Shown: one piece after another, positions 3,677 through 48,971 of the stretch | Numbering within the stretch: the stretch's first letter is position 1 | Layout: every line of letters begins with the position of its first letter | IMG/VR virus record: IMGVR_UViG_3300042401_002002 | Length of the DNA: 64,000 nucleotides | From: a virus | Lineage: Duplodnaviria; Heunggongvirae; Uroviricota; Caudoviricetes | Direction: 5' to 3' (one strand) | Translations under genes and position numbers: made by a program | Notes under the pieces: model-generated | What the model saw: the letters and a program-made list of their open reading frames with translations, nothing else | What the model was told of the DNA's origin: nothing | The model's database searches: none

Positions 3677-3712
3677 AAAAACCTCTCCTAAAATTAATTA
3701 AGAGAGGTTTTT
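3677..3712. terminator. conserved bidirectional terminator hairpin AAAACCTCTCYT-N-ARGAGAGGTTTT
   Basis: Inverted repeat with A/T tails; closes array 1. Confidence 0.7.
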
Positions 3713-4586
3713 ATTTCGTAAAAATAGTTATCGAATCAGATAGAAATCTTTTGTTGGTTAATATCCATTGGTACCAAAAATTATTAAATTTATGATATTG
3801 GTAGTGTTTTATTATGTTAAGTTTCATCTTTTAAATGTTAAAATTTTATTGTAGTATTCTTTTGAACCTGTAAAATCTTCAATATACCACTCATCGTGAT
3901 TATTATCTAATAGTTGATTTCCAACAAACTTCCAGTTATTAGGTATTCTTATAAGTTTCATCTCCAATAAATAATTAATCGGTTTAATCTGAAAGATTCA
4001 TTTCTATTAAGTAATAATATTTCTAAACTACTACTATCATTTATACCTGATATATTCAAAAACCTTAATGTAAATTTTGTGTTTTTAAGTTTCATCTTGG
4101 AAATGTTATTAATTTGTTATGCTTAGTATTATCTATAAGTTCACTAAGACACCAATTTTCAGTTAAATTTTGGAAAACATCTTTTTTCTCGCCAACAAAT
4201 TTCCACTTATGATTAGTTATATTAAGTTTCATCTTGATAACGATATAAGTTGATTATAAAACATTTTATAATCTGTAATAGTTTGAATAAAACTTCTTCC
4301 ATCACTATATATAATATCGAATTTAGTATAAAATTTCTCTCTTTTAAGTTTCATCTCCAGTAAATATAAATTCTATTATGTACTTTATTATTTAAATCAT
4401 AATTAGGTTGAAACTCATTAAACCAATCTTTATTAAATCTGGTTGAATTATTTAGTTGTATTTTCATCTTAGTAATGTTATTATTGTATCATACAAACCA
4501 ATTGTTATTAATTTTTCATACGTAATATAGCCTACTGAAACATTACAGACGAGTTTTAAATTTATATTTGTTCTTACCAATTTCAT
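3711..4586 (-). repeat. MKL microgene array 1a (7 ORFs)
   Basis: ORFs 3711-3827, 3824-3961, 3958-4095, 4092-4232, 4229-4354, 4351-4467, 4464-4586, chained by ATGA overlaps; e.g. MKLIRIPNNWKFVG...YNKILTFKR and MKLNITNHKWKFVG...HNKLITFPR. Confidence 0.9.
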
Positions 4587-5143
4587 TTCAATATCTTTTT
4601 AATTTCATTAAAACTAAACGCTGGTGATACATCTGTGTAATTTAAACCAATGTTTGCTCTACAGAAGATACCTTCATACATTTCAACGTTATCTATTGGG
4701 AATATATGTGAAACACAATCACGTTTTATATTGTGTTTAGTTAGTAATTCTTTTAGTAAAACTCTCAATGTAGAATATTGTTCTTTTGTGTAGTTATGCC
4801 ACAAAGTTTGGTCCATGTATTTCTTTCTGAATACTTCATCACTTGGTACCAATACATTATACCAGTTTTCAAAAGTATCATTATCAACTTCTTTCAACCA
4901 ACCTAGATTTTCTAAACAAATTGTTATGTTATAACTATCAATTTTATTAATACCTGTAATCTTGTTATGAAATTTAGTATCCATAAATTGCGTTAAAACA
5001 CCTTCTCTGTTGATTATATAGTGTGGTTGAATAACTTCATGTTGCAAAGATAATCTGTCCGTGTAGTCATGTTCTTTCATCAAAGAATTGATTAACATAA
5101 TTCTATCCTTTGGTGTTTCTTTGGTTGTTATTTCTGGTTTCAT
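4583..5143 (-). CDS. N-acetylmuramoyl-L-alanine amidase-like protein (Amidase_2/PGRP fold)
   Basis: HYIINREG, ITICLEN, YTKEQY and DVSP motifs. Confidence 0.75.
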   Translation of the reverse strand: MKPEITTKETPKDRIMLINSLMKEHDYTDRLSLQHEVIQPHYIINREGVLTQFMDTKFHNKITGINKIDSYNITICLENLGWLKEVDNDTFENWYNVLVPSDEVFRKKYMDQTLWHNYTKEQYSTLRVLLKELLTKHNIKRDCVSHIFPIDNVEMYEGIFCRANIGLNYTDVSPAFSFNEIKKILK

Positions 5144-5584
5144 CTTGTAAAGGTTATTAGTACATCATTCCACTTATAGTTAATTATAGTTTTTAAACTA
5201 TAATAACCATCTGAATAATTAATATTATTAGTAGTTATTAATTTAGCTATAACTCTGTTTCTTATGTAAAGTTTCATCTTTTTAAAATTGTAATTACATT
5301 AATAAAGGAAGAATATGTTTGTATTATTTCTTCTATTGTCCAAGTTCTTATATTAGAAACATTACCAATTGAATATCCGTAATAATTAAAATCCTCGTTA
5401 GATTTATCATGTTTAGAAATATCATGTATTGTAAGTTTCATGTTAAGTTATAATATCTTGTTTCATCTTTTATAAATATAACTAATTTATTTCTATGTTC
5501 CCAATTATGATTTTTCCATTCTCTAGTTAATACTAACGTATTAATATGAAAATAATGTCCAGTATTTAATATTTTAAGTTTCAT
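5140..5584 (-). repeat. MKL microgene array 1b (3 ORFs)
   Basis: ORFs 5140-5277 (MKLYIRNR...NDVLITFTR), 5274-5441 (MKLTIHD...NVITILKR), 5438-5584 (MKLKILNTG...). Confidence 0.85.
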
Positions 5585-6024
5585 ATCTTATTTCTTTTAA
5601 GTCTTCTAGCACTAACTTCTTTTTGTGTTGTTGCAAAGGTAACATTTTTTTTCCATTTACAAACATATTCTTTATTTATTCTTGTAATTTCTTTTTCATT
5701 TGGTAATGTTACTGTAACTGGTTCTTCTTTTATAACAGCCATAATACCATATATTCTACAAGCTTTTCTTATTTTTTTAAGATAAACAAAATGTATCTCT
5801 GTTCTATGGTATTCATTATCTATAATATAACCTTTACTTTTTAAACCTTTGATATTACCGTTTTTATAGTATTCAGTTATAAATTCAACACCTATTTTAT
5901 ATATTGATGTTAATTTAACTTTTTTGGTGTGTATTTTTTTATTTTCTTTATAACGTATGGTTATTACTATATTCTCATTCTCATCCCATTTGATTGGATG
6001 ATTAACTTTGACTCTTTTATACAT
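5581..6024 (-). CDS. basic hypothetical protein
   Basis: 147 aa ORF; first gene of the unit that carries array 1. Confidence 0.55.
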   Translation of the reverse strand: MYKRVKVNHPIKWDENENIVITIRYKENKKIHTKKVKLTSIYKIGVEFITEYYKNGNIKGLKSKGYIIDNEYHRTEIHFVYLKKIRKACRIYGIMAVIKEEPVTVTLPNEKEITRINKEYVCKWKKNVTFATTQKEVSARRLKRNKI

Positions 6025-6099
6025 ATTTATAATGATTATTTTTATTAATTACAAAATTAATATTATTTTTAATTTAAACAAATAATTTTGTTGATTTAT

Positions 6100-6125
6100 T
6101 GAAACCTTTTATTTAGATTTGCGTT
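6100..6125 (+). promoter_or_regulatory. composite promoter TGAAAC-N16-CGTT containing TAGATTTG
   Basis: One of seven similar copies, each shortly upstream of a gene start. Confidence 0.65.
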
Positions 6126-6162
6126 ACAATTAGAAATGTTCATATAAACATGTAAAATAGTT

Positions 6163-10360: not shown

Positions 10361-10363
10361 ATA

Positions 10364-15051: not shown

Positions 15052-15085
15052 AAAAACCTCTCCTAATTTCTTAAGAGAGGTTTTT
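15052..15085. terminator. conserved terminator hairpin
   Basis: Between convergent genes. Confidence 0.7.
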
Positions 15086-15088: not shown

Positions 15089-18000
15089 TTATAACTTATT
15101 ATTGTTGTTTAAAAACTCATTTAGTAATTGAACTGTTTCATTTGAATTTTGACTTAAACTTGTTTTGTCTTCAACTTCTTTAAGTAACTGAACCAATTCG
15201 TTATTTGTTTTATTTGCTCTATACAAATATTTTTCTTTTAACTGAAATGGTTCTTGTTCACCTTGTGGTGCAGCTCCACCTGCTGGGTTATTACCTGCAT
15301 CCATTGGTCCACCCATAGCATCGGCTCCTGGTTCAGCAGGTTGTTCACCGTTAACTTGTGCTGGGTCTAATGATGAAGTAATAATACCTCTTTTAATGTA
15401 TTCCTCTAAATCATTGAAAATACCTGATTTTTTAAGAATTAAACCAGCATTTTTAATTTCATCACCAACAACATTTTCAATCATTTGTTGTTTAATATCA
15501 TCAAGTATTTCATCAGCTGATAAACCAAAAATAAGTTTTTTAGCATTTGTTTCTGACATAGGTTTTAAACCTGTTTCATTTGATGTCGTTAATTTAACAT
15601 ATAAATCAACTTTTTGTGTAAATGCTTCAATTTTAAGTATTTCTGATTGTGTAGATGGGTTATTTAAAGTTAATTTATAATCTCTAATATCATCATCACT
15701 GTAACCTAATAAGAATAAATGTATTAATGCAATTTTGTTTAATTCTTGAATCATTGCATTTTGTATTCTCATTACTTTTCTAGAAAATACAATATCTGTT
15801 TGAGCATTATTGTCACCACCACCTTCTCCAGAACCTGAGAAATTAAGTCTGTTTTTAGGTACACCTAAACCTGTAAATAAGTTATCTCTTAAGTATTCAA
15901 TATCTGCAATTTTATCTAAATTATCAGCACCTTCTAAAATATCAATTGGTGAAGGGTCACCAGCGTTTTTAACTGCAACAAATATATCTTCAACACCACT
16001 TGCTGGACTATATTTGTAATTAATTTGTCCTGTTGCAGGGTCAACTATTTGTGATTTTTTAAAATTTGAAATAGTTTGACGCATAAACATTGGGATATCT
16101 GCTGGGTCCATATTACCAGTAGGAACTTTAACTACTTTAACCCTTGCAGCATTAGTTGCTCTATATACTAATTGAGCATCTTCACTCATTTTTAACATTC
16201 TGTAATACATTCTAACAGGTGCCAGTACAGATGTACCATAAGGTAACGTATTTTCATCACCTAATAACCTAAAATGTGCCACTTGGAAGTTAGTATATTC
16301 TTGTCCACCTAATTGCCAAATAAATTTAGTTGTTGGTTTTCCATTTATAATTTTTTCTTGTCTTTCTATTTCAGATGTAGGTAATTGTTTAACATTTACA
16401 ACACCTTTATCTGCTTCAGTCATTACAAATAAAAAATTATCACCAAACTTGCAGTTTGACAAAAATACACCAGAAGTTCTTGAGTATGAACCGTTTATGT
16501 CTTTACCTAGTACTGGAAAATTATGTCTATCATGTTCACCGTTAGGACCAACAGCTTCTAAACAGTAAACATCCGAAGTTTCTTCTAATTTAACAACGGA
16601 AACTACTTTATGGTTTACAACCTTAGTTTTACCTAAAAAAATTGCTTTAGCTCTTATATAATCTTTATCTAATATTAAAGTTGGTTTAATAGATAAAACA
16701 TAATCAAAATAATTTAACTCAGTTTTTCTCTTTAAAACATTTGTTAGTGTTGCATGGTTTATAGATTTAATAATATCTTTTCTTAAAGTATAAGTTTCTT
16801 TAAAAAGATTTATAAATTCAGTATCAATTTTTAATAATTGAGCTAGTTTATTTATACCAACATAATTTTCGTTACTTGCTATAATATTAGTTATATAGTT
16901 TAAACAACTATCAGATATTTCTATTGTCATACCTTTTTTTGTTTTCGCAACAAATTCTTCATTAGACCAATTCTCTAACATTTTTTTTGTACGGATTTCA
17001 TTATGTTCACTGTGTAAATCACTATTATTATATTCATTAAAATATTTTGGATAAATACCTGTCATTTCTTTTGACATTCTTTGTCTACGAGCATCAGATG
17101 TTAGATATTTGTGGATACCTTCTAAACGTTTTTTTGTAATTTCAGGTGAATGTAATACTTGTTTACAAAGGTCTGTGTGTATTTTAAAATGTTCACTGTT
17201 AGTTAATCTTTGTAAATTATGTGGGTGATTATTTAGTTTATTAAAATCAATGTGATGTGTGTCAAAACGTTCATTGACAGTTTTTTCATATTCCAAATCA
17301 CGCACACATTCATGTGCTACCATACGATGAGTAAACTTATATTTACCAGTACTTGGGTTAAATACTTTTTCATAACCACCTATTTGGTCTTGTTTTTTAT
17401 TACTTTTTTTGGTGTAATAAGGCATTAACGATTGACCAGGTGTTAATTCATCAGCTCTTTTAAATGAACCGTTTCTTAACATGTATTCATGGTCTGGTGT
17501 TGTATCTATATATGTACCATCATCTAACGTTACACGATATAATTCACTATTTTTTCTAGTTAAGTCACACCAAACAATTTTACTAGGTACAATAGCGTGT
17601 GTCTTATCCTGAATAGAATAAGACCAGATTTCTTCACCTAATTTAATTCTATCTGATAATTCTTTTATTGTACACTCAGTACCATCTAATAATGGTATCA
17701 TTGAATTCTCTCTAATTGGAGTGTTTCTCACCCAGAAAGGTAGATTAGTATTAATATCTAAAATCTCATAAAATAAGTATTCTAAATCTTCTTTTAGTCT
17801 ATTATTGTTAGAATAAATGTTTAACATTTGACCTCTATCACCTATCGTTGTGGCTTCTTCAGCTAAAACATTTAAAGCTTGAGCTATGATAGGGTATGAT
17901 TCCATCATTTTATATTCAACATAAGCAGGTAATCTTAAAGCATTGGCTTGAACTGCTTGCATATCATTTTGTTGGATGATATGTGAATGTTGTTTATAAA

Positions 18001-18172
18001 GATATTGCGTTTGTTGGTATTCTAATTTTTTATCTTCTAATTCTTCTTTAGAAGATGCTGTAATAAGTTCTTTTTTTTCTATTGGTGTAACAAATTGATT
18101 ATTATCATGTTTATTAACCTTTCCTGTTAATCTATTATAGGCTGATTCCCATAAACTAGTTTTTTCTGCCAT
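15089..18172 (-). CDS. portal protein (T4 gp20-like) with intein
   Basis: P.IAQAL...AEEAT, WVRNT/CKFGDNF, HFRL..D...PYG.SVL, EDA..VYR and DIEYLRD.LF..L.VP motifs; about 605 aa after splicing. Confidence 0.88.
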   Translation of the reverse strand: MAEKTSLWESAYNRLTGKVNKHDNNQFVTPIEKKELITASSKEELEDKKLEYQQTQYLYKQHSHIIQQNDMQAVQANALRLPAYVEYKMMESYPIIAQALNVLAEEATTIGDRGQMLNIYSNNNRLKEDLEYLFYEILDINTNLPFWVRNTPIRENSMIPLLDGTECTIKELSDRIKLGEEIWSYSIQDKTHAIVPSKIVWCDLTRKNSELYRVTLDDGTYIDTTPDHEYMLRNGSFKRADELTPGQSLMPYYTKKSNKKQDQIGGYEKVFNPSTGKYKFTHRMVAHECVRDLEYEKTVNERFDTHHIDFNKLNNHPHNLQRLTNSEHFKIHTDLCKQVLHSPEITKKRLEGIHKYLTSDARRQRMSKEMTGIYPKYFNEYNNSDLHSEHNEIRTKKMLENWSNEEFVAKTKKGMTIEISDSCLNYITNIIASNENYVGINKLAQLLKIDTEFINLFKETYTLRKDIIKSINHATLTNVLKRKTELNYFDYVLSIKPTLILDKDYIRAKAIFLGKTKVVNHKVVSVVKLEETSDVYCLEAVGPNGEHDRHNFPVLGKDINGSYSRTSGVFLSNCKFGDNFLFVMTEADKGVVNVKQLPTSEIERQEKIINGKPTTKFIWQLGGQEYTNFQVAHFRLLGDENTLPYGTSVLAPVRMYYRMLKMSEDAQLVYRATNAARVKVVKVPTGNMDPADIPMFMRQTISNFKKSQIVDPATGQINYKYSPASGVEDIFVAVKNAGDPSPIDILEGADNLDKIADIEYLRDNLFTGLGVPKNRLNFSGSGEGGGDNNAQTDIVFSRKVMRIQNAMIQELNKIALIHLFLLGYSDDDIRDYKLTLNNPSTQSEILKIEAFTQKVDLYVKLTTSNETGLKPMSETNAKKLIFGLSADEILDDIKQQMIENVVGDEIKNAGLILKKSGIFNDLEEYIKRGIITSSLDPAQVNGEQPAEPGADAMGGPMDAGNNPAGGAAPQGEQEPFQLKEKYLYRANKTNNELVQLLKEVEDKTSLSQNSNETVQLLNEFLNNNNKL
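16454..17719 (-). mobile_element. 422 aa intein with HNH homing endonuclease, atypical Pro1
   Basis: Block A PIRENSMIPLLDG, block B TTPDH, HNH DTHHIDFNKLNN, block F DVYCLEA, terminal LSN followed by Cys+1. Confidence 0.85.
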
Positions 18173-20797: not shown

Positions 20798-20831
20798 AAA
20801 AACCTCTCTTATTAATTTAGGGGAGGTTTTT
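20798..20831. terminator. conserved terminator hairpin
   Basis: Between 18642..20747 and array 2. Confidence 0.7.
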
Positions 20832-21482
20832 ATTTTTGAATAACAATATTTTATTGAAAAACCTCTCTTCATCAGATAAATTTCTTAAATTTAATTGATT
20901 GATAGAGAGGTAAATCCAATTAACTGTATTGAAAGTACTATTAAAACCTGTTTTATAGGTTATTATTATGTTAAGTTTCATAAACTATTAATTTTGTTTG
21001 AATATAAACAAACTTTTTCTGTTATGATTATTTTTTATGAATGTTATCACATCAATGTTGTGAAAACCGTTAACATTTAGATTTAAACCTGTAAGAATAA
21101 AATCATAATCTTCTAAATTAAATATTTTAAGTTTCATCTTAAAAAGATTATTAGTTTGTTATTGTCAAATTTAAATAATTTACCACCATACCATTTTTGA
21201 ATGCCAAAATAAAACCAATGGGTTTTATCAAATGGGTCAAAGTTCTGTGTGGGTTTATCAACTTGTAATTTCATCTTTTTAATATATAAATTCTATCTTT
21301 AGATAATGCGTTAATAGGTTCAGTTTTGTTGTATGCACCAAATATAAATTCAGTCATTAGTAATTCTCCTTGTTTGACATGAAAAACTAGATTATTGCAA
21401 ATGTAGTATTGTAATTTCATCTTTTAAATATAATTATTTTCCCGTTATAATAAATTTTTTGTGAAATTATTTCAAACAAATT
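20817..21482 (-). repeat. MKL microgene array 2a (4 ORFs plus the 3' half of an IS-split unit)
   Basis: ORFs 20817-20981, 20988-21137, 21134-21274, 21271-21420; 21417-21482 encodes NLFEIISQKIYYNGKIIIFKR*. Confidence 0.85.
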
Positions 21483-22897: not shown

Positions 22898-23282
22898 ATA
22901 TGTTTTTTCATCACTTCTATAACCGAATTTTGCTGAAGTGGTTAATAATTGTAATTTCATCTTTCAAAAGTCAATAACCAATTAATATGTATTTCTTTAC
23001 GTTCAAGTAATTCATCTAAACAATAAGCAAAACTGCTTGTATCGTTTTTAAATTTAAACATTAAATTGTATTTTGTTTGTAATTTCATGTTCATCTATTT
23101 TAAAATAATAAATTACGATTAAATATATGTAATTTATTTAAATCATTTTTTATTAAGTTAATATTTATTTTTCTTGTAATCTGATTAAATAAATCATCAT
23201 ATTTATTGAAATATTTATACATAACAACATTCCCACGTCTCGTTCTGATATAATATATATCTGGGATTATTTTAAGTTTCAT
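22898..23282 (-). repeat. MKL microgene array 2b (5' half of split unit plus 2 ORFs)
   Basis: 22898-22960 MKLQLLTTSAKFGYRSDEKTY; 22957-23088 MKLQTKY...NWLLTFER; 23100-23282 MKLKIIPD... Confidence 0.85.
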
Positions 23283-24856: not shown

Positions 24857-24952
24857 GTACTACTATTTTACTACAACAAATCTAATTATAATTTTTAATT
24901 AATCCAACTATTTATTTAAAATACTCTATTTAATTTAAACAAAATTTATAAC

Positions 24953-26956: not shown

Positions 26957-26992
26957 AAAAAACCTCTCTTATTAATTTAAGAGAGGTTTTTT
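26957..26992. terminator. conserved terminator hairpin
   Basis: Between 24953..26926 and array 4. Confidence 0.7.
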
Positions 26993-28763: not shown

Positions 28764-28796
28764 ATATTGATAAGAGTTTTTTTATTAAAATTTATT

Positions 28797-33274: not shown

Positions 33275-34876
33275 TTATCTTGAAAAAGTCACTAAAGAAT
33301 TAAAATAAAAATTTCGTTTAGCATGATTTATTTTTTCTTCTATTGTTAAGTCATAAGGTTTATTAAAACCTGCAAGTAGATAACTGAACGCCTTAAGTGA
33401 TATATCAATGTTTGATATGTTTAATTTCATCTTTTTAAAATAAATAAGTAATTATAGTTTGGTTTGTACATTGTAATAGCGTTTTTAATCATTTGTTCTG
33501 GAGTTGTTTTTCCAAAACCAAATTTTCTTGGAATACCACAAGCTAAATACATTTCATTTGGGTCGATGAGTGGTGAATATTTTAATATATTTAATTTCAT
33601 CTTTCGTAAATATAAATTCTGTTACAATTTTTTAAATAAAAAAACGAAAGTTCTTTATTTTCAACAAAATAAGTAAACCAAACTGAATGTTTAAACCTAC
33701 TTCCCGTTCTAACTATTGAAAGTTTCATCTTAAATAAATTATTAGTTTGTTAGTTAATAATTTAATATATTTATCATGTCCATTTATTTTACGAACCAAT
33801 CCTGTATTTATAATTTTATTAGTATGTTGGAACATTTTTAATCTCATCTTAAATAAATTATTACCTTGTTTCTAAATCCTTTTAAACCGTAATCGTCCTT
33901 TATTCTTTGGTAAGAAACTGAATCAATAAACTTTACATTACTTCCGTTGTTAATTATTTTAAGTTTCATCTTTTGTAGATTAAAATTTGGTTTTTATATT
34001 CAAACATATATTTATATCCGATTTGACTTCTATAATAAAACATAGATTCTTTAAATTTAACAGCTACTATTTTATCTATTACCAATTTCATCTTTCGTAA
34101 ATGTAAATTTTGTTTAAATCGTATTTATTTAAATCGTAATCATTTTGTAAACATTCGTTTATTGGTGAATATTTAAACTTGCTGTAATAGTAACTCATGT
34201 TTAGTACTTTTATTTTCATTTCTTGTAAATATTTATTTCGTTTGAATAAAGTTTAATAAACATATTTGGATTATTTATTAAATGAAATAATTCACTTGTT
34301 ATAAACCAGTCATATTGGTAAATTGAATATTTAAGTTTCATCTCAAATAAATTATTATTTCATTTAAATCATATTCTTCAATAGGAAACATTAGTAAAGG
34401 TTCAATGTCGTTATTTAAAATTAAATATCCTAATATAACTGACTCATTTATTTTACTATCTGATTGTCTTATTTCTAATTTCATCTTTCTAAAATGTATA
34501 ATTTGTTTGTCATTTCAAATATTTGTTGGTAATTATTTTCAACAAGATGTCCGTAAATAGTTGTTATGTTAAAGGGAAAATCATCATGATTACTTATTTC
34601 TAATTTCATTTTTGTAAGTGTAAATTGAATTTATATTATATTCATTATGTTTAACATAATTGTTTGAACCAATTGTAATTAATCTAAACCAAGATGTTGA
34701 TGTAAATTTTAGATGAGTATTTTCGTATAAATTAAGTTTCATCTTTTGTAAATTTGTAGTTGATTTATCCAGTTTTCTATATTAATCCAATTACAATCTT
34801 CTTTTAAGAATAGAATATAAATACTTAATTCATTAAAATGACTAATTGCTTTATTACTAAAAACTACAAGTTTCAT
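33275..34876 (-). repeat. MKL microgene array 5 (12 ORFs)
   Basis: Starts at 33430, 33600, 33728, 33847, 33969, 34091, 34219, 34341, 34484, 34609, 34742, 34876; nearly all end N-x-[IL]-x-I-[YFL]-x-R; TAGATTTG promoter element about 20 nt upstream of the first. Confidence 0.9.
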
Positions 34877-34947
34877 TAGTTATTTGTTTATAATAACAAA
34901 TCTACAATTTTTATTTAATTTAACCAAACTATTTACAATAAAATATC

Positions 34948-36005: not shown

Positions 36006-36305
36006 ATGAAAATTCAAAAAGTTAAAGGATTTAGGTTAAACAAACATTATTTTAAACTGTATTTGTTTGAAATTTTAATCATGTTAACGGTAGATTTAGG
36101 TTGTTACATAAGTTTAATTACTTTAGCTTATGATAAAAACTTTGGTTTGTTTTTTAAGAACAAAAGACAGAAATCTTATGGAATAGAATTTAATTTTGTT
36201 GACAGAAATACAGTTAACGAGAAAATGTATATATCTGTTTATGAATATAATAATATTCAAAATAACAAAACTAAAGTTATTAATAAGTTATTTCCTATTA
36301 AATAG
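36006..36305 (+). CDS. hypothetical protein
   Basis: 99 aa ORF following 35708..36001. Confidence 0.4.
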   Translation: MKIQKVKGFRLNKHYFKLYLFEILIMLTVDLGCYISLITLAYDKNFGLFFKNKRQKSYGIEFNFVDRNTVNEKMYISVYEYNNIQNNKTKVINKLFPIK

Positions 36306-37294
36306 AAATATCTGGTTATAAACAATAAAATAATCCTTAGCTTCTTCGTTATTCTGAATAATAGAATAAATCCAGTAATCTTTTAGGCTTGCATAAACAT
36401 AAGGTTCTATTTGAAGTTTCATTTTTTTATTTGCGTTTAAGTAAAAATATTTTATTTGTTATTATACCGAAATATTTAGCATTATTATCATTTTGAATTA
36501 TTGAATAAAAGTAGTGATTTTCATCAAATATGTTATATTGGTCTTTAAGAAATATAAGTTTCATTTTTTTAATATCATTAAAAGGTTGCAATCAAATTCA
36601 TCTACGTTTAACCATGTATAGGAACCACTTATACTATAATGATATTCAAAGTCAATACATAGATTATAATAAAAGTTACCGACCTTGAATTCATTAGGTG
36701 TTGAACCAGGTCGGTTTCCTTGTGTTGGATAGATAATTTTAAGTTTCATCTTTCTAATATTAATAAACTGTTATAAAACCCTTTGATATTTGTAAAGGTT
36801 AGAATCCCTAAATATTCAAGTTGAATAGATGTTGTTTCAAAACCTATAAATTTGTAATCTTCTGTTACAGTTGTATCTAATTTCATCTTTTATAAATTAA
36901 TATTTCGTTTCTACTACCAGAAATTAATTCGTAATAAATATCTAAATCAAACAACATTATTTTATTACTATCTGATTCACTTCTTTTAAAATACAAATGT
37001 TCACCTTTCGATTTAATATTATAAAATATATCTAATTTCATCTTTTATAAATATATATGTTATTGCGCCAATCTTCAAAAGTATCTCTTTTTAACTTAAA
37101 TAAAACTTGATAGATATAACCTCTATCGAATTCTATTGATTTACCGTAGTTATAAATTTTTAATTTCATCTTTTATAAATTATGATTTCATTGTACCAAC
37201 CAACAAAATTATCATTTTCCAAGCCAAATAGAACTCGATAGATATAACTTCTACCGAATTCCAAATGTGTTTCTCTGTCAACAAGTAATATCAT
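36288..37294 (-). repeat. MKL microgene array 6 (7 ORFs)
   Basis: ORFs 36288-36422, 36427-36564, 36561-36749, 36746-36886, 36883-37041, 37038-37169, 37166-37294. Confidence 0.9.
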
Positions 37295-39024
37295 TTCCCC
37301 TCAAAAGTGTTGATAATATCCTTCGGGTCCACCACGATTTGTCTGAAGAATCTAGGTTCGTTAATTATTTTACATTCAATTCCACATGAAATAATAACAA
37401 CTTTTTTGAAACCTGATAAATCTAATGTATCACAATAACCATCGGTTAAGATTAATAAGTTTTCTCTACCAAAGTTTTGTTTTACGTAATTAATACCTGG
37501 CATTAATTCGGTACCACCGTAAATATCGTGTAGTTGTTTAAGATTTCTAATATCTTTTTGACTTTTGATTTTTACTATGTTTTTTTCATTAACTACAGTA
37601 TCACAGAAGACTAGATTACCAACATAATTATCTTTTATACAGAAACCTAATATAGGTTCAACGCAACCACCCATACTTCCACTAACATCACACACAATAT
37701 TTAATGACTTAATATCATAAAACCTACCTTTAACAATAAATTCACTATCACTGTGTTTTTTGTTGTTTTTCTTGTAAGTTCTGTTTAATGAACCACTACC
37801 TTTTAATTTATTTACTGTACTAAAGATAACCTTTAAGAAGTTTTCTTTTTGTGGTGTGATTTGTTTCATTAATTCATCTACAAACCCTGTATCAACACCT
37901 CTTGCTTTACAATAAGCATCAATGTTTCGCATCCTATCTGCAATTTCTTCTGGTGATATTTCATCTTCATCACTTGATGTAAAATCATCTAATGATTGGA
38001 AGTTTTTACCACCTCCACCACTTGGGTTGTTTTTGTCAACTAAATATCTTAGTGCATATAAATCTAATGTACCTGTATATCTATCATCTTGTACATAAGT
38101 GATATTGTCATTATTTTTAATAATGTTTAGGTAGTCGTGTGATTTAATATGAACTTTATAAGTTTGATTATCTTTTAAGATTCTATCTCTAACAACATCA
38201 TAACCTATTGTATCACATTCACTCTGTAGTTTTTTAATATGTTCATCAAAAAATTGATACAGTTGTTCAAATACTAAATTAGAGTTATTTTCACCTTTAT
38301 CATAACCAGCTTCTAAAAAAGGTTCTAAATGAATACCTGACCCACATTTTTCCCAGTTTGATGGGAATATATAATGTTTATACGGGTTTTCTTCGTCAGG
38401 ATATGATTTTGGGTCATAATTAGGGTTAATTTCTAATTCTTTTATTATTTCACCCATTATTCTAATATTATTAGATAATTTATCAAATCTTTTCTTTGAT
38501 TCTTGGTTATCTGGGTTTTTTTGAAGATAATTAGATAATGTTTCTAATTTATCAGTTGATTGTAATAAATCAAGTTTAATTGTATCAAGTGGGGAGTCTT
38601 GAAATATCAAACTAATATGGTCACGTAATGCAACTTGGAACCTTTCAGCTCTATATTGGTATTGTATATTGTAGTTGATAATAGCATCAGTAACAATATT
38701 ACATTTACTTCTTTGAACCTCATTTGTAAAACCATACAGACGTTGTAAGTGTGCTGATTTGATGTGCATTAACTCATGGAAAATTAAATATGTAATTTCT
38801 GAGTTTTCTAATTTATTAATGAAATGTTCATTATAAGAAAATAAGAAATTTTTAAACTTAGCAGATACACAAGCAGTATCAATATCGGTTCTTTCTTTGA
38901 ACTCAATTAAGGTTGTGAAATAACCAAAATAACGATGTGCTGTTAATGATGAATGTGTTAATAAATCAATAATAGCGTTTGTTAATTTAGCATTTTTAAT
39001 TTTTACTGGAGATTCGTATGACAT
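37291..39024 (-). CDS. metallopeptidase plus vWA domain protein (DUF2201-like)
   Basis: HELMH zinc motif, N...D..IN, MIDAS DVSGSM, GGT, LTDG. Confidence 0.85.
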   Translation of the reverse strand: MSYESPVKIKNAKLTNAIIDLLTHSSLTAHRYFGYFTTLIEFKERTDIDTACVSAKFKNFLFSYNEHFINKLENSEITYLIFHELMHIKSAHLQRLYGFTNEVQRSKCNIVTDAIINYNIQYQYRAERFQVALRDHISLIFQDSPLDTIKLDLLQSTDKLETLSNYLQKNPDNQESKKRFDKLSNNIRIMGEIIKELEINPNYDPKSYPDEENPYKHYIFPSNWEKCGSGIHLEPFLEAGYDKGENNSNLVFEQLYQFFDEHIKKLQSECDTIGYDVVRDRILKDNQTYKVHIKSHDYLNIIKNNDNITYVQDDRYTGTLDLYALRYLVDKNNPSGGGGKNFQSLDDFTSSDEDEISPEEIADRMRNIDAYCKARGVDTGFVDELMKQITPQKENFLKVIFSTVNKLKGSGSLNRTYKKNNKKHSDSEFIVKGRFYDIKSLNIVCDVSGSMGGCVEPILGFCIKDNYVGNLVFCDTVVNEKNIVKIKSQKDIRNLKQLHDIYGGTELMPGINYVKQNFGRENLLILTDGYCDTLDLSGFKKVVIISCGIECKIINEPRFFRQIVVDPKDIINTFEGK

Positions 39025-39358: not shown

Positions 39359-39599
39359 CTTTTATTTCTTTAGTAATCGGTTTACTATTTTGAAATAAAT
39401 GTTTTGTTATTTTAGCGTTGTTAGGTACATATAATTTATAACCAACATAAAACCAAATTATTATTTCTGTTATTCCAGTTAAACCTCGTAAGGTTGTGTC
39501 TGTATGCCTAATATTGGTAGCTAAATAACATAAATATTCTGATAGTGCAACTATCAAAGGATACAGTAGCATCCAAAGTACGAAGGGTAGGTTTTTCAT
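39294..39599 (-). CDS. membrane protein
   Basis: Two hydrophobic segments. Confidence 0.55.
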   Translation of the reverse strand: MKNLPFVLWMLLYPLIVALSEYLCYLATNIRHTDTTLRGLTGITEIIIWFYVGYKLYVPNNAKITKHLFQNSKPITKEIKDAIEETSKRIAKNHSKFKSRL

Positions 39600-39730
39600 C
39601 TTTTATAAATTAATATATTGTTCGTCCAATTTTCAGAATTAATCCAATTTTCATTAGTCTTAAGAAATTTAGTATATAACTTAGTGTTGTAAAGGTATAT
39701 ACCATCAGTATTGTTTATGTCTAGTTTCAT
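39596..39730 (-). CDS. MKL microprotein (singleton)
   Basis: MKLDINNTDG...NWINSENWTNNILIYKR, ATGA-coupled on both sides. Confidence 0.8.
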   Translation of the reverse strand: MKLDINNTDGIYLYNTKLYTKFLKTNENWINSENWTNNILIYKR

Positions 39731-40055: not shown

Positions 40056-40175
40056 TTATCTTGCAAATATATTAATTTGGTTGAGATAATTTAAGTCAAC
40101 TAATCCTTGAATATGATTGTTGCGTAAAACAACATAATTTTTAACCTGTTTTACACGAAATATTTTTAATTTCAT
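40056..40175 (-). CDS. MKL microprotein (singleton)
   Basis: MKLKIFRVKQV...LNQINIFAR, directly after the promoter at 40196-40221. Confidence 0.8.
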   Translation of the reverse strand: MKLKIFRVKQVKNYVVLRNNHIQGLVDLNYLNQINIFAR

Positions 40176-40195
40176 CTTTCCAATATTTTATATTC

Positions 40196-40221
40196 AACGC
40201 AAACCTAACTAAAAGGTTTCA
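40196..40221 (-). promoter_or_regulatory. composite promoter TGAAAC-N16-CGTT
   Basis: tgaaaccttttagttaggtttgcgtt on the minus strand. Confidence 0.65.
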
Positions 40222-40275
40222 ATAAAACAAAAATAATTGTTGGAAATCTTTTAAATAACCAACAATTATTATTTT

Positions 40276-40401
40276 TTATCTAACAAAAATGCCTAACCAA
40301 TTACAATGATTTTTAGTAAGATTGGTAGTTCCTAAAACAGTGCTTTTATAAAAAACTGTTGAAGTGAACGAAATTCCAAAGTCTGATTTTTTAAGTTTCA
40401 T
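40276..40401 (-). CDS. MKL microprotein (singleton)
   Basis: MKLKKSDFG...CNWLGIFVR. Confidence 0.75.
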   Translation of the reverse strand: MKLKKSDFGISFTSTVFYKSTVLGTTNLTKNHCNWLGIFVR

Positions 40402-40404: not shown

Positions 40405-43400
40405 TCAATTAATACTAATCAAACTACAACCTTTTTCATCAGCTGTTACAGTTAAACTGTAATCAACATTTAATTCATCACTGTAAGCGTGTTCAATGAT
40501 GACTATTTTCTCAATTTTTTCTTTGATTTTATGAATTAACTCAAAGAAATTAGTTACTGAATCACCAACTAGTTTACCTGTTACCTCATCTAAGAATAAA
40601 AAGTTACCTAATGATTTATTATTAATTGACCTTAATGCTAATCTTAATATAATCGAAATAAAGGTCCTTTCCATTCCGGAGCCACCAATTACATTTTGTA
40701 TAGCTGTATTATCATTGTAACTATACATTTTTAATGTCATATTTTCATCAAAATAAACATTAAAGTTACATAAATCATTGATTAAATTATGTATTTCATT
40801 GTTGATGTCTTCTCTCATATTTAATAAGAGTAATTTAGGTACACCATCTCTGTGAATACACTCAACATAACAAGTATTAATTTGTTCTTCAAGTTCTTGT
40901 TCTTGAAATTTACTTATTCTGTCATTAATTGTTTTAATGTTATTTGTTAAGGTTGTAATAACATTATTTTCAATAAAACTAACATTTGCTTTAATTCCAT
41001 TAACTTCATCTTGTAAAGTTTTTAATCTAGCATCGTAAGTATCTATTACCTTTTGAACCTTTTCATTTTCAATAACTTTATTGTTTTCAATAACAACTCT
41101 ATCATAGGTATTTTTATTATTACCTATTTTCAAGTCAACATTTTCAATTAATAAAGGAATGTTGTTCTTTTGGTTAACTAATTGTTGTCTTTTATCGAAT
41201 TCTTCTTTTTCTTTTTCGATTTCAACAATTAATTCCTGGTTTTCTGACATCTTAACAGATGTATCCTCTAAATCTTGTTTGAAACGTATGATATTAGCTT
41301 CAAGTAACTTAATATCATTTTCAAAACCAACCTTTTTACTCTCTTCATTTTTTATTTTGTTTAAAGATTCTGAAATTTTATCCTTTAATGATAATATTTC
41401 TTTGGTATCTTGTTCCTTAATATTATTTTCAAAACATTTAATAGTTTCTAATATACTAAGAATCTCAGGTGTATTATTTTTAGATTCCTCTAACTGGTTT
41501 ATTTCAGTTTTTTTATCATTAATCTTATTTTGAATGATAACTAACTGAGCTTTACCTAATTCTCTGTCACAAGATGGGCAAATTTTGCTTTTATCTAAAA
41601 TTTCTATCTCAGATAAAATATTATTAATTTTAGAATCAATCTGTTTATTAATTAAACCAATTTCTTGTTCTTTTAACTTGATTTTAGATTCTAAATTACC
41701 TAATTCTTTAGTAATATCAGTTTTAAAAGAATCAATAGACCTGTTTAGAAGTAATATATTACCATTGCAAACAGCAATATCATTTCTAACTGAATCAACC
41801 TTATTAGTTGTTTCTTTAATATTCGATTTTACCCCAATAAACTCGTTCTGTAATGAATCTTTTATACCACATAAGGTATTATATCGTTCAATGTTATAAG
41901 TGTCTCTTAGAATTGATATTTTTTGTTCAAGTTCTTTTTGAGAAACAAAATAACTATCTTTTTGTTCAATTAAAACATTTAATTCTTCTTTAAGTTTGTC
42001 AAGTGAAGTGTTAGCTAAGGCTTTGTCAATAGGATGTAACTTTTTAAGTTCATTTTCCTTGTACTCTTGACCTGTTTTTAACCTTTTCTCTCTATCAACT
42101 AAAGAATCATTAAGTTCTTTGATTTTGTCTTTGTTGGTTTGAATTTCATCTTTTATTAATTGAATTTTAACCAATTCATCTTCTACTTTAAGAACTATTT
42201 TTTCTTCTTTTTTATAAAGTTCTTTTTTGTAGTCTTTGTATTCAGCTAATTTTCTTTCAAAAACATCTAAACCTGAATATTTTAAAATACTATCCATAAA
42301 TACTGATTCATCCATTGATAATAAATTATTCAATGTATCAGCATTAACTAAATATAAAGCTAAGAAATCATCAAATGAACCAATTATATTTGATAAATAT
42401 TCCTGGTTTTTAGATTTTTCTTCATCAGTTTGGTTGATTATTTCACCATTACTATCAATAAGATTGATTTTTAATGTTGTTGGACAAGCTGTAATCTTAG
42501 TTTTACTTCTATCCCACTTTCTTTCAGTTCTTCTAACTAAAGAAAATCTAGTTTCATCAACATTTATAATAGCACCTGATTCACAGTAATCTAAATCACG
42601 TTTGTTATTAATAAATCTGTTATCACCATTGGTTTCTCTTTTTAGAGTTTCTAATGTTTTACCATGTAATAAATATAAAATACCTGAAAGTAAATTGGTC
42701 TTACCAACTGCATTTTCACCCATAATTTGATACAAACCGTTGTTTTTATCCCAGTTCATTTCAAATCTATCAGCATGTGAACGATAGTTATCAATATAAA
42801 AAGATTCAATTCTCCAATCTTTTCTTTCAATACTATTAGATGCCCCTAATCTTTTATTAATTTTATTATCTATCTCAATAACTTTGTCAATAAATTCAGG
42901 TTCATAATTTTTATTTAACAAATGTTGTTTAAATACTTGTTGCTGTACATCGTAATTGGTAATATTAACCAAAGATTTTCTAACAAAATCATTCTCAACA
43001 ATTTTATTGTTTCTTATTTTGTTTTCTTTCTTTTTAACTTCAACAACGGTTGGGTATTTGGATTGTATAAATAACTTAATCTTTCTCCAATTTTCACTTG
43101 TAAAATTAATAGCATCATCGGTCCAATCAACTTTTACGTGAGTATATTTCTTAACCTCAGAAGATTTAAGTTTAATATTTAAATTATCGTAATCAATTGT
43201 TTCATCAACACCAGTACCTTTTAAGTAATAGTTAATGTAACTATATTCATTTTCAATCTCAATAAGTTCATGTTTTATGTTTTTAACATCTGAGATGTTC
43301 CATAAAATAAAGCCATGTTTATCAACAGATTCACCATAATTATTTTGATATAATGATGATGGATATGCACCTTTAATTGATTTATCTTTATTATGAAATA

Positions 43401-43983
43401 ACTGATATTGATGTATGTCACCCATTAATAATAAATCACCTTCAAAGTCTTCTAAACTAACATATTTAGAATCTTCAAATTCTTGACCAAAAAATGTTCT
43501 TGAACCATTAATAGGGTCATGAAATAAATCAATAACTAATTTATCTGTTGGTTTGGTAAAACCAGGTTCTAAAACCCAAGGTGATGTCTTGTCGCTATGA
43601 TGCCATACTGACCAAATTACATTTTCATCATTGTAAAATGTGGTCGCATCGTAATATTTAACCTTTGGGTTGTTAATCAAATTGATAACAGTATTTACTG
43701 AATCAACACGATTAACAGCTTTCATGTTAAGGTCATGGTTACCTAATGTAACTCGAACTTCAGCAATTTTAGATAGTTCATTCAAGAACCAACCACCAAG
43801 TTTTTTGGTTTCATTGTTTACTTTATTAAAATCATGAAATAAATCACCAACTATAACTATTCTGTCAGGTTTAACCTCGATTAGTTTTTTGATTGTGTTT
43901 TCAAGAACTTGTTTTTGTCTTGCTTGATACTCAAGTTTATTCATTAAATGAATATCTGAGAGGTGTGCTATGGTTTTTATCAT
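40405..43983 (-). CDS. fused SbcD-SbcC (Mre11-Rad50, gp47-gp46-like) nuclease-ATPase
   Basis: Phosphoesterase SDIH, GDLFH, GNHD, GDIH; Walker A GENAVGKT; coiled coil with CPSC hook; SGMER signature; FLDE; EH. Confidence 0.92.
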   Translation of the reverse strand: MIKTIAHLSDIHLMNKLEYQARQKQVLENTIKKLIEVKPDRIVIVGDLFHDFNKVNNETKKLGGWFLNELSKIAEVRVTLGNHDLNMKAVNRVDSVNTVINLINNPKVKYYDATTFYNDENVIWSVWHHSDKTSPWVLEPGFTKPTDKLVIDLFHDPINGSRTFFGQEFEDSKYVSLEDFEGDLLLMGDIHQYQLFHNKDKSIKGAYPSSLYQNNYGESVDKHGFILWNISDVKNIKHELIEIENEYSYINYYLKGTGVDETIDYDNLNIKLKSSEVKKYTHVKVDWTDDAINFTSENWRKIKLFIQSKYPTVVEVKKKENKIRNNKIVENDFVRKSLVNITNYDVQQQVFKQHLLNKNYEPEFIDKVIEIDNKINKRLGASNSIERKDWRIESFYIDNYRSHADRFEMNWDKNNGLYQIMGENAVGKTNLLSGILYLLHGKTLETLKRETNGDNRFINNKRDLDYCESGAIINVDETRFSLVRRTERKWDRSKTKITACPTTLKINLIDSNGEIINQTDEEKSKNQEYLSNIIGSFDDFLALYLVNADTLNNLLSMDESVFMDSILKYSGLDVFERKLAEYKDYKKELYKKEEKIVLKVEDELVKIQLIKDEIQTNKDKIKELNDSLVDREKRLKTGQEYKENELKKLHPIDKALANTSLDKLKEELNVLIEQKDSYFVSQKELEQKISILRDTYNIERYNTLCGIKDSLQNEFIGVKSNIKETTNKVDSVRNDIAVCNGNILLLNRSIDSFKTDITKELGNLESKIKLKEQEIGLINKQIDSKINNILSEIEILDKSKICPSCDRELGKAQLVIIQNKINDKKTEINQLEESKNNTPEILSILETIKCFENNIKEQDTKEILSLKDKISESLNKIKNEESKKVGFENDIKLLEANIIRFKQDLEDTSVKMSENQELIVEIEKEKEEFDKRQQLVNQKNNIPLLIENVDLKIGNNKNTYDRVVIENNKVIENEKVQKVIDTYDARLKTLQDEVNGIKANVSFIENNVITTLTNNIKTINDRISKFQEQELEEQINTCYVECIHRDGVPKLLLLNMREDINNEIHNLINDLCNFNVYFDENMTLKMYSYNDNTAIQNVIGGSGMERTFISIILRLALRSINNKSLGNFLFLDEVTGKLVGDSVTNFFELIHKIKEKIEKIVIIEHAYSDELNVDYSLTVTADEKGCSLISIN

Positions 43984-44944
43984 TTTCTTGGAAATATTAT
44001 TAGTGCGTTGTGGTTGGATTTAGTAGTAAAGTTTTTTATACGTAACATTTCGATTTTATAATCTAGACCACTTAATAAACCTGTTATGTATAATTTCATC
44101 TTTTTGTTATTATTAATCGGTTGTAGTGAATTTCGGGTATATATCTTTCAGTTTTATTATTAATTCTATGAAAAACTCCACTATTATTGAATAGTACAAA
44201 GTTTGAGTTAGTTATTTTTAATTTCATCTTCTTTCAAAAATTAATAACATGTTATGATTTCTTTTGTTTTGTAAAGTGAATTCAGATGTTATCTCACGTT
44301 TCCAGTTAAACGTTTTCAATAAAGCAGATATATCTAATTTCATCTTTTAAATTTTTTATATAATTTATATAAAATATAACTTTTTAGTGAAAATCCAAAT
44401 ATAACTAAAATTATTATAAAATAACTATTATCTATTTGGAATATTAGATAGATATCTAATAAGCAAGCCACTAATAAGAATATTGATAACATAATACCTA
44501 GTTTCTTAAAGAAATTGAATTCTAATCTTTTGATTGTTTCTATTGTCATCTTGTGTAAATTGTTATGTAATTAATAAAATTATTTATATTTTTACCTGGT
44601 TTATGACTACCTTTCATAAAATTATAATCAGGACTTGTTAAGAAAAAGCTATTGGGTTTACTTATATTTAATTTCATCTTTTGTAAATTATTATTATCTG
44701 TCAAGAATTAATAAACGATTATAATTTATTTTTAAATCACGTCCAGAAGTTATCATGTAATAAGGTGTTATATCACCTAAATAAGGTTTCCAAATTTTTA
44801 ATTTCATCTTTTAAATATTACCATTGCGTTACTCCATCTTTTTATCTTAATTTTACTTTTTTGTTTTCCAACTAAAACATGATAATAAAGATTATCACTA
44901 ACAAAATTAACTTTATACGTACTATTATCTATTTCAAGTTTCAT
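43980..44944 (-). repeat. MKL microgene array 8 (6 ORFs around a 69 aa membrane ORF)
   Basis: ORFs 43980-44099, 44096-44227, 44224-44343, 44546-44677, 44694-44807, 44804-44944. Confidence 0.88.
44340..44549 (-). CDS. small two-helix membrane protein
   Basis: Two hydrophobic segments; ATGA-coupled inside the array. Confidence 0.5.
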   Translation of the reverse strand: MTIETIKRLEFNFFKKLGIMLSIFLLVACLLDIYLIFQIDNSYFIIILVIFGFSLKSYILYKLYKKFKR

Positions 44945-44964
44945 CTTTCTAATATTTTATCTTC

Positions 44965-44990
44965 AACGCAAATCTACATAAAAGGTTGCA
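44965..44990 (-). promoter_or_regulatory. composite promoter TGCAAC-N16-CGTT containing TAGATTTG
   Basis: Upstream of array 8 and sbcDC. Confidence 0.65.
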
Positions 44991-45045
44991 ATAAAACAAA
45001 TAATTTTTAAAAATAGTTTGGTTCTATTTATTAAAAACAAAATCA

Positions 45046-47430: not shown

Positions 47431-47436
47431 TATTTA

Positions 47437-47469
47437 AAAAAACCTCTCTTATTAATTTAGGAGAGGTTT
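47437..47469. terminator. conserved terminator hairpin
   Basis: After tape measure, convergent genes. Confidence 0.7.
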
Positions 47470-47475
47470 ATTTTG

Positions 47476-47760
47476 TTAAACATTTATCGGTTCTTTTTGT
47501 TTTATGTTATTCATTTTTTCTTTAATAATTAAACAATCAGTTAAAGCATCATTATAATTATCATATACTTTATCAGTATTAAATAACCTATTTAAACCCC
47601 ATGTTTGATATAGTCTTAACCAACCAGGACCTGTTTTAACTATTTCTATCTGAAATATAGATTCATTATCTATAACAAATTTGTTAATTCTGAATATAAA
47701 TTCAGGTTCTTCTATTTTCTTTTTAAAAAGAAGATTTTTAAATGTTTTTATTAGTTTCAT
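47476..47760 (-). CDS. hypothetical protein
   Basis: 94 aa; begins MKLI but lacks the microprotein C-terminal motif. Confidence 0.5.
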   Translation of the reverse strand: MKLIKTFKNLLFKKKIEEPEFIFRINKFVIDNESIFQIEIVKTGPGWLRLYQTWGLNRLFNTDKVYDNYNDALTDCLIIKEKMNNIKQKEPINV

Positions 47761-47827
47761 ATTTATAATTTGGTTAGTAGTTTGTAATAATACATTTTTT
47801 TTATCATTAAAACAAATAATATTAGTT

Positions 47828-48971
47828 TTATTTTGAATAAATTTTAAGATAATTTAATCCATAATCAGTTAACTCTTCGTTAATATTTATGTTGTTTATG
47901 TAAAAATATACTGCTGAATATTTAAACCTAGGTGCTAGTTCAGTTAGGTTATCTATTTTTAGTTTCATCTTGTATATATTGTTATGTAATTAAACCACCT
48001 TTCCCATAATTTATTAATAGTTCTTTCGCCTATAAGTACCTCAAAATCACTTGATTCAGTAAATAACATAGTTTCAAAATTTGTTTCTATTATTAGTTTC
48101 ATCTTGTATAAATTTGAATGTAATTAGTCCAAACAGAAATATCTTTGATTATAAACCTACCCATTAATAATTCATAATCAGCTGAATAAATAAAAATTAT
48201 ATCTGTATCTGTTTGTTGTTTAAGTTTCATCTTTTGTAAATTGATAAATTATCTAAACCGAAAACACCTTTATCTAAACTGTTGATTATTTTGAATAATC
48301 TAGATTTTTTAAAAGGTATATCAGAATATTTTGGTCTGTTTAGTATTTTTAGTTTCATCTCCAATAAACGTTTATGTAATTAGTCCATATTTCCCCTGGT
48401 TCTATTTCACGATGATTAATAAGTAAATCATAATCACTTGATTGGGAAAATCTTAAACTCTGATATTTTTCTATTCTAAGTTTCATCTTTTGTAGATTTG
48501 TATGTAATTAACCCAACTATAAATATCATTTATCTTGCCTTTGCTAGTTAATATTTCGTAATCAACTGAATCAACGAATTTGTTATCTATATCGGTTTGT
48601 TGTTTAAGTTTCATCTCACAAATATACAAATTTTATTGCACCAAAATTTAACTAAATAATGGTCTCCATTATCTGATAATAAGAATCCTTGCATACCTGA
48701 ATGATTAAAATCACCCATATCGTTGTATTGATTAACTTTCATATTAATTTATATTTAAAAAGATAGGTTGTAAATTATATTACAGAACTTAATTGCGTCT
48801 GTTTTTATTTACATTTTTATAATTACAACCTATCTTTTTTTATCTTTTGTAAATGTTTATATTATTAGTCCAATTTTCAACAGGACTTATAATACGTTCA
48901 CCTATTAACAAAATATAATCTAGTGAATTTATAAATTCATTATCCTCTTGGTAAATTACATCTAATTTCAT
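47828..48971 (-). repeat. MKL microgene array 9 (8 ORFs, 128 bp period)
   Basis: Starts 47968, 48102, 48230, 48358, 48486, 48614, 48742, 48971; shared internal S.D[YF]..L...W.N.I.[IV]Y.R motif in five units. Confidence 0.92.

Follow-up and report, generated by a model that had tools for sequence, protein, structure and literature searches.

In T4 and other large lytic phages, the immediate-early genes of host takeover are short, promoter-proximal, often overlapping, dispensable and variable, and many of their products are directed at host proteins. It is chiefly among small phage genes that takeover and anti-defence functions are found; such genes are usually unrelated singletons and hard to study together. 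Here, we describe a 64-kb stretch of DNA from an uncultured phage (IMG/VR record IMGVR_UViG_3300042401_002002; hereafter the window, to whose positions all coordinates refer), in which one phage lineage has amplified a single microprotein design about 66-fold, with purifying selection on each copy and exchange of copies between strains. These microgenes resemble immediate-early takeover genes in being short, promoter-proximal, overlapping and strain-variable. However, takeover genes are mostly unrelated singletons, whereas the microgenes form one family, and no sequence or fold link between the two was found. We know of no case in which 66 paralogues within 64 kb share fixed termini.

The hyperplastic regions of T4-type phages offer a second comparison. 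In these regions, promoter-early stem-loop (PeSL) cassettes carry small, non-essential early genes between blocks of core genes, and close relatives differ by the insertion, deletion and replacement of entire small-gene modules, which recombine at short conserved sequences (Arbiol et al. 2010, PMC2839356; Comeau et al. 2014, PMC4122927). Microgene arrays are similar in that two of their borders (28733-28764 and 40176-40275) carry terminator-promoter composites, and in that the indels (143, 255 and 1686 nt) and the replacement separating the window from a close strain (L019) break at the junction between consecutive genes or no more than a few nucleotides away from it. In contrast to PeSL modules, each with its promoter and stem-loop, consecutive microgenes meet in a 4-nt ATGA overlap with no intergenic DNA. 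Moreover, the recombining element of PeSL cassettes is non-coding and their open reading frames (ORFs) are mutually unrelated, whereas here it would be the coding end of one family, present in dozens of units. The arrays fit the hyperplastic-region gene set of a T4-like phage, but are unusual in that a single microprotein family supplies every shuffled unit and in that the conserved sequence of exchange is the coding end of that family.

A family of short genes with fixed termini

An earlier, sequence-only reading of this DNA had described minus-strand arrays of microgenes with the pattern MKLxI...NxIxI[YF]xR, about 66 in number. ORF listing and scripts recovered every array that it named, each in its place (Table 1), and small-ORF calling combined with a family hidden Markov model (HMM) and pattern searching yielded 66 genes, hereafter also called cassettes. 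Of the window's 230 small ORFs, 60 match the HMM, which was built from an alignment of 56 members, and all of these are minus-strand ORFs. Five further members were assigned by pattern and context, and one intact member with an MRL start (33725-33847) fills an apparent 115-nt gap (33729-33843). The 66 ORFs encode 35-62 residues (median 45) and lie without exception on the minus strand, none being found on the plus strand. Sixty-five of them cover 9003 nt, which is 14.1% of the window; standard minimum-length ORF tracks miss a substantial share of jumbo phage coding capacity.

The family follows the pattern MKLxI...F...Y...NxIxI[YF]xR, with conserved positions at M1, K2, L3, I5, an aromatic residue (F) near position 13, Y near position 19 and the terminal N-x-[IL]-x-I-[YF]-x-R. 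The start MKL is present in 59 of 65 members and the final R in 51 of 65, while the 4-nt ATGA overlap is found at 38 of the 64 listed junctions. The middle of the peptides had been described as largely unrelated. This holds outside the conserved positions, where paralogue cores are 18% identical versus 17% for shuffled sequences, but not for the aromatic residue near 13 and the Y near 19, each conserved at 50% or more. The best core identity between any two paralogues is at most 47%, and no near-identical copies exist. The idea that the gaps of the ORF track are tiled purely by microgenes had to be abandoned, since genes for an amidase, DHFR, a peptidase-like protein and Mre11/Rad50, together with a 69-aa ORF, are chained in by ATGA overlaps.

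The microgenes evolve as protein-coding genes

The chaining of so many short frames had been judged unlikely by chance, and simulation agrees. The minus strand has 46 pairs of 30-70 aa ORFs chained by ATGA, and the plus strand has none. First-order Markov simulation gave 0.44 such pairs on average over 100 runs and never more than 3. In the nearest complete relative (G001), which has the same GC content, 10 chained small ORFs occur among about 780, which is at chance level, without a shared motif, and the family profile has no match in the 266 kb of that genome.

Orthologous cassettes could be compared in strains from independent assemblies (L019, L020-L024, L082, L104, L126 and L165-L168). 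In orthologous pairs of the same length, the ratio of nonsynonymous to synonymous substitution rates (dN/dS) is 0.27 in the called frame versus 0.92 and 1.33 in the two off-frames of the same alignments, and the differences per site at the three codon positions amount to 0.122, 0.079 and 0.164. Pooled by strain, dN/dS ranges from 0.16 to 0.33, next to 0.03-0.30 for neighbouring ordinary genes, and within the cassettes it is 0.16 for the termini and 0.32 for the cores. The frame is kept open in all 35 orthologous cassette-strain pairs, 14 of which are at 65-96% nucleotide identity; in two flagged pairs, the start or stop position is shifted and nothing else. The same ORFs were called by independent gene callers in Logan, ENA, JGI and NCBI contigs; samples containing this phage include Logan runs SRR27420658, SRR27420059, SRR29492082, ERR12084973 and SRR25083400 and JGI 3300042486. 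At the RNA level, the cassettes are no more structured than shuffled sequence (mean folding z of -0.36), and they have no match in Rfam. Since dN/dS is frame-specific and the frames stay open across strains, we conclude from these comparisons that the microgenes are protein-coding genes, each peptide evidently being under purifying selection. The selection on translation proposed in the sequence-only reading is thereby supported, all 14 diverged orthologue pairs being open. Neutral dN/dS, frequent stops and membership of a known family, which that reading had listed as counter-evidence, were each examined, and the outcome favours real genes in all three.

The description of the genes as hypervariable, if taken to mean ongoing diversification, did not survive: dN/dS in orthologous cores is 0.32, and the best core identity among paralogues stays at or below 47%. 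Since paralogue cores are near-random yet orthologous cores are under purifying selection, the variety of the cores reflects old divergence that has been maintained, together with cassette turnover; it is neither active hypermutation nor the sign of an arms race among these strains. A diversity-generating retroelement target, which would call for a reverse transcriptase, a near-identical template repeat and variation centred on adenines, was considered and rejected on the same two values and on the lack of a reverse transcriptase domain among the large ORFs scanned in the window.

Cassette content differs between strains

When the window was aligned with L019, we found seven cassette-level events between flanks that are 93-98% identical. 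In array 4, L019 lacks the first two cassettes, which are covered by an extra 242-nt segment of the window, and has three others. L019 carries one extra cassette (143 nt) and two extra cassettes (255 nt), and one cassette is swapped for an unrelated one. A block of 1686 nt (21279-22964), consisting of TnpB and two cassettes, is absent in L019, as is the last cassette of the window, of 160 nt. Most of the boundaries lie no more than a few nucleotides from the ATG-to-ATG junction. Other strains differ as well, the syntenic array beside the 245-aa gene (array 9) having eight members in the window, seven or eight in L020 and five in L165, in a partly different order. Judged from these alignments, strains quickly come to differ in array content as whole cassettes are gained, lost, replaced or reordered, and the breakpoints are at the conserved junction. 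Since the extra cassettes of L019 have no close copy in the window (best match 39-41% identity), the cassette pool evidently exceeds the content of one genome.

Relatives are found in one phage lineage

No named family had been recognised from the sequence, and database searches concur. When 56 members were searched singly, the best E values were 0.005 in PHROGs and 0.013 in Pfam, for one member each, with no significant family match, and the family profile gave no match to PDB sequences at E values up to 10. Against the window's own larger proteins, it scored nothing better than an E value of about 1. A suspected likeness of the family termini to the first and last strands of DHFR was dropped, as the profile has no similarity to the phage's own DHFR. 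When 1.84 billion protein representatives were searched exhaustively with HMMER, all 16 matches were window members or strain variants of them, so that by this search the family is lineage-specific. A homologue search with a 70-row profile returned two proteins only, short queries scoring too low at that database size, and an ESM Atlas feature search gave no usable match.

The spacing of the conserved junctions was also used as a search pattern. In IMG/VR, it matched six loci, none with family members. In metagenome contigs, it matched at least 120 loci, and 117 of 120 among the matches listed are CRISPR-like arrays or low-complexity repeats, the true members among these being L082, L104 and L126. 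The CRISPR-like arrays have no match to the family HMM. These metagenome loci (L031-L150) are mostly unrelated repeat arrays in contigs of 38-47% GC, along with AT-rich low-complexity tandem repeats, and several of the arrays share a CRISPR-like repeat that translates as FKFHYVQMK. A keyword-limited literature search found no prior description of the family.

Promoter-like boxes, terminators and start context

Early expression of the microgenes had been proposed, and it is plausible in view of the upstream signals. The exact pattern TTTG-N19-TAGATTTG occurs four times versus 0.19 expected, and three of the four matches are at the array heads 24856/34876/44944 or upstream of array 5. The arrays heading at 24856, 34876 and 44944 begin 20-24 nt after such a box. 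The box matches the Bacteroidota primary-sigma promoter consensus (TTTG / TAnnTTTG), which suggests transcription by the host polymerase, hence early, and a Bacteroidota host. At the other end, the exact pattern of a conserved terminator has six matches versus none expected. Three arrays (3711, 20817 and 26995) finish at this terminator with no downstream gene, while others pass by ATGA overlap into or out of genes for DHFR, the amidase, the peptidase-like protein and Mre11/Rad50. The Mre11/Rad50 fusion gene (40405-43983) is the one coupled to the downstream side of array 8.

Synonymous codon choice is skewed at the 5' end of the cassettes, with CTT at 32 of 58 Leu3 codons (7.3 expected) and ATA at 34 of 39 Ile5 codons (12.5 expected), while C-terminal codons are closer to genome usage. 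Such a skew would be expected if recombination homogenised these ends, or if a particular start context were preferred. Programmed -1 frameshifting as a means of joining cassettes was rejected, because the residue before the terminal R varies and there is hence no conserved slippery site.

A promoter-leader unit of about 60 nt (TTTGTTTTATTG.AACCTTTTA.GTAG.TTTGCGTTGAA.ATAAAATATT.GAAAG, then ATG) is present in two copies (40176-40275 and 44945-45045). The two head different groups of microgenes, and the first is preceded by a hairpin, forming a PeSL-like composite.

Protein properties and predicted fold

The encoded peptides are predominantly basic, 82% of the members being net positive, with a median charge of +3 and a median isoelectric point of 9.6. 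None of 65 members has a 17-residue hydrophobic segment that could span a membrane, and cysteine is rare (19 in 65 peptides, or 0.6% of residues). For member 48843-48971, AlphaFold2 produced a confident model, with a mean predicted local distance difference test score (pLDDT) of 92.8, consisting of a strand (4-12), a helix (13-22), a loop and a second strand (37-42). For member 27129-27284, which has an unrelated core, the prediction reached a pLDDT of 66 and contains a central helix only. The proposal of fixed terminal strands around a variable core is therefore upheld by the first model and not by the second.

The confident model has no match in the PDB by Foldseek, no chain with Z >= 2 in an exhaustive VIA-align search, and nothing meaningful in fold searches of the Atlas and BFVD (TM-scores of 0.44 or less). 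It had been speculated that each unit is one blade of a β-propeller. Such a blade is a four-stranded antiparallel sheet of about 40-50 residues, whereas the model has two strands and a helix, and with no meaningful match in any of the four fold searches this idea is not supported. A two-copy complex prediction of one member, run without controls, scored 0.00, which counts neither for nor against self-association.

A proposed role for the microgenes and its alternatives

We propose that the microgenes are a lineage-specific, chained, selected and shuffled microprotein family with early, host-directed action, a reading to which, taken whole, we assign a probability of roughly 0.55. Its parts differ in strength. 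That the microgenes are coding and turn over between strains we regard as very likely, while a function as host-directed binders is a tentative proposal that could well be wrong. From the promoter-proximal position, the selection on each peptide and the strain-specific repertoires, we infer that the products would be early, cytoplasmic, soluble, basic mini-proteins acting on host components. Host-type promoters at the heads of early operons would transcribe the microgenes, and translation would proceed by termination-reinitiation at the ATGA overlaps. Homologous recombination between conserved junctions of ~35 nt (...NxIxIYxR, then MKLxI) would drive turnover, acting like the PeSL elements of T4 hyperplastic regions, except that the recombination site would be the coding end itself. 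The conserved termini and two aromatic anchors would hold a common mini-fold, the diverged middles providing a member-specific binding surface, and each strain would draw on a large and variable stock of binders that act early on the host, in takeover, anti-defence or exclusion.

Should different members bind different targets, they would be a compact, naturally diversified set of inhibitors on a 45-residue scaffold, and the family would be a clear case of coding ends that serve as recombination sites for modular shuffling. A stronger version, which we consider speculative and probably incorrect as it stands, is that of a natural scaffolded binder repertoire, in which a minimal fold closed by its termini, with ~30 free residues, is multiplied in each genome and reshuffled between strains by recombination at the ends of its coding sequence. 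Every phage strain would in that case have its own mixture of early inhibitors, aimed at defence and housekeeping proteins of the host. The family would be to phages what a variable-receptor repertoire is to its bearer, and protein inhibitors of ~45 residues could readily be drawn from it.

Several observations weigh against the proposed reading. Some of the boundaries between strains are off the junction; the 242-nt segment (24616-24857), for example, has its end within a cassette, at a distance of 27 nt. Orthologues are no less diverged at synonymous sites in the termini (proportion of synonymous differences of 0.377) than in the cores (0.302). The constraint on the DNA therefore appears modest, neither strong DNA-level constraint nor frequent gene conversion at the junctions being evident, and the 5' codon skew may reflect the context of translation initiation. 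As for the fold, a common structure is extrapolated from one model, and with the second at a pLDDT of 66, many members may be disordered or may fold only on binding. Finally, the assignment of the boxes as Bacteroidota promoters is tentative, being drawn from their likeness to the TTTG/TAnnTTTG consensus.

Among other explanations, an unlikely one is that the cassettes are selfish or nearly neutral, spreading through their recombining ends while their ATGA ends keep the neighbours translated, so that the peptides are tolerated by-products of little benefit. Near-identical strains do differ by the gain and loss of cassettes, the cores of paralogues are near-random (18% versus 17% shuffled), and the nearest complete relative lacks the family. 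However, purifying selection acts on cores (0.32) and termini (0.16) alike, and all diverged orthologues are intact in stop-rich DNA of 26% GC. In addition, near-identical copies that would mark recent spread are lacking (best paralogue core identity of 47% or less), and 14% of the window is spent on the cassettes in a phage of fixed capsid capacity.

Less probable still is a translational relay, in which the microgenes keep ribosomes on long early mRNAs, perhaps in a host with low Shine-Dalgarno use, protecting the transcript or tuning the dose of downstream products, with the peptides secondary. The near-unbroken ATGA chains that feed DHFR, Mre11/Rad50 and other genes would suit such a role, as would the A-rich start context (ATGAAACTTAAAATA), in which codon choice goes beyond amino-acid need. 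Yet these operons also contain ordinary genes that lack the family termini and are nonetheless directly ATGA-coupled, the three arrays that end at the terminator (3711, 20817 and 26995) have no gene to feed, and a core dN/dS of 0.32 indicates that the amino-acid sequence matters.

We are more doubtful of a mixed oligomer, in which terminal strands pair between chains and many members co-assemble as a sheet, a ring or a propeller-like particle. Co-expression from one mRNA would give matched amounts, and the conserved hydrophobic terminal segments are strands in the confident model. That model is nevertheless not a blade, four fold libraries offered no likeness to a propeller or an oligomeric mini-protein, and the gain and loss of members between strains is hard to square with a defined assembly.

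Libraries of precursors of ribosomally synthesised and post-translationally modified peptides, such as the prochlorosins, have a long conserved leader, a core rich in Cys, Ser and Thr, and a dedicated modifying enzyme. The microgenes recall them in combining many short paralogues, with conserved and hypervariable parts, in one genome, and their conserved ends might be recognition sequences. This is very improbable, because they have no long leader and no Cys/Ser/Thr-rich core, with cysteine rare (19 in 65 peptides) and conserved parts at both ends, and because a scan of 29 large window ORFs turned up no domain of a modifying enzyme.

A non-coding DNA or RNA repeat that mimics ORFs (iterons, a CRISPR or other repeat-spacer array, or a structured RNA) is brought to mind by a conserved junction alternating with unique spacers about every 130 nt, and can practically be discarded, being contradicted by frame-specific substitutions, open frames across strains, a Leu3 that is held via both CTN and TTR codons, a folding z of about 0 and the lack of Rfam matches.

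Array layout, phage and neighbouring genes

The arrays and the terminators are listed in Table 1.

Table 1. Positions of microgene arrays and conserved terminators in the window
Feature	Position	Strand	Composition and context
Array 1	3711-5584	-	10 microgenes; Amidase_2 gene (4583-5143) ATGA-coupled inside; continues from 147-aa gene (5581-6024)
Array 2	20817-21420	-	4 microgenes; conserved terminator (about 20803-20837) at end
Array 3	22853-23282	-	3 microgenes, between 220-aa gene and TnpB element
Array 4	24068-24856	-	6 microgenes; first begins 20 nt after TAGATTTG box (24877-24884)
Array 5	26995-28523	-	7 microgenes; DHFR (27704-28222) ATGA-coupled on both sides; terminator-promoter composite (28733-28764) upstream
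Array 6	33275-34876	-	12 microgenes, including MRL-start member (33725-33847); promoter box 34897-34928
Array 7	36288-37294	-	7 microgenes; ATGA-coupled to upstream 577-aa DUF2201-type metallopeptidase-like gene (37291-39024)
Three single microgenes	39596-39730, 40056-40175, 40276-40401	-	Among genes of 99-101 aa; terminator-promoter composite 40176-40275
Array 8	43980-44944	-	3 + 3 microgenes flanking 69-aa ORF (44340-44549); promoter box 44969-45000
Array 9	47828-48971	-	8 microgenes of 43-46 aa; most self-similar subfamily
Conserved bidirectional intrinsic terminator	3682-3707		A-run, CCTCTC.TA stem, T-run; 3' end of array 1
Terminator copies	15057-15080, 26963-26986, 47443-47466, 59751-59773, 62287-62309		Plus variant near 20803-20837

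Two arrays contain features foreign to the family. In array 8, the 69-aa ORF is unrelated to the microgenes and rich in hydrophobic residues, with long hydrophobic stretches that by eye resemble two membrane spans, and it is connected to the array by the same stop/start overlaps. Array 9 has a 97-nt gap (48743-48839) in which a T-run comes after a long perfect hairpin (AAAGATAGGTTGTAA ... TTACAACCTATCTTT). This element differs from the conserved CCTCTC terminator and is likely to be an internal terminator or a processing site.

A domain scan of the large ORFs of the window (26% GC) identified genes for a T4-type portal and for both subunits of ribonucleotide reductase, with inteins in the portal and in the large subunit, as well as thioredoxin, DHFR, a family-B DNA polymerase, the fused Mre11/Rad50, two TnpB copies and GIY-YIG endonucleases. 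A tRNA scan and an Rfam scan of the window found nothing. By this gene content, the source is a large (jumbo), distantly T4-like phage, of ~265 kb and 26% GC. In an NCBI assembly (GCA_041447075.1), one family member is recorded on a contig of 265,309 bp, with the gene order of the window around it. No match was obtained when 15 kb of the window was compared by Megablast with 50,697 phage records. Among isolates, a Microcystis phage (33% identity) and Flavobacterium phages (31.5%) have the best-matching portals, so that on these comparisons no isolate is close to the window phage. Its nearest complete relative is G001 (266 kb, 26% GC), with a portal 41% identical.

In the portal gene (15089-18172), the intein splicing domain model matches above the Pfam cut-off; in the reductase large subunit (30274-32952), the match is below it (23.7 versus 35.8 bits). 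The two TnpB genes (OrfB_IS605 plus Cas12f-like TNB) encode 426 aa each and are located at 21528-22808, within the 1686-nt block that L019 lacks, and 58253-59533. ORF 40405-43983, of 1192 aa, combines a calcineurin-like phosphoesterase domain (Mre11/gp47-like) with the start of an SMC_N-type ATPase (Rad50/gp46-like), the SMC_N match being below the Pfam cut-off, and the two recombination nuclease subunits thus appear to be fused in it. A GIY-YIG/NUMOD1 homing-endonuclease gene (49845-51128) is situated between the DNA polymerase gene and the 245-aa gene. At the homologous spot, the diverged strain L165 has no such gene, its polymerase being followed directly by a 232-aa homologue, and L167 has a 411-aa variant. 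A 468-aa protein (55824-57230) that matches DUF5977 (PF19404) is kept beside the polymerase region in all strains recovered.

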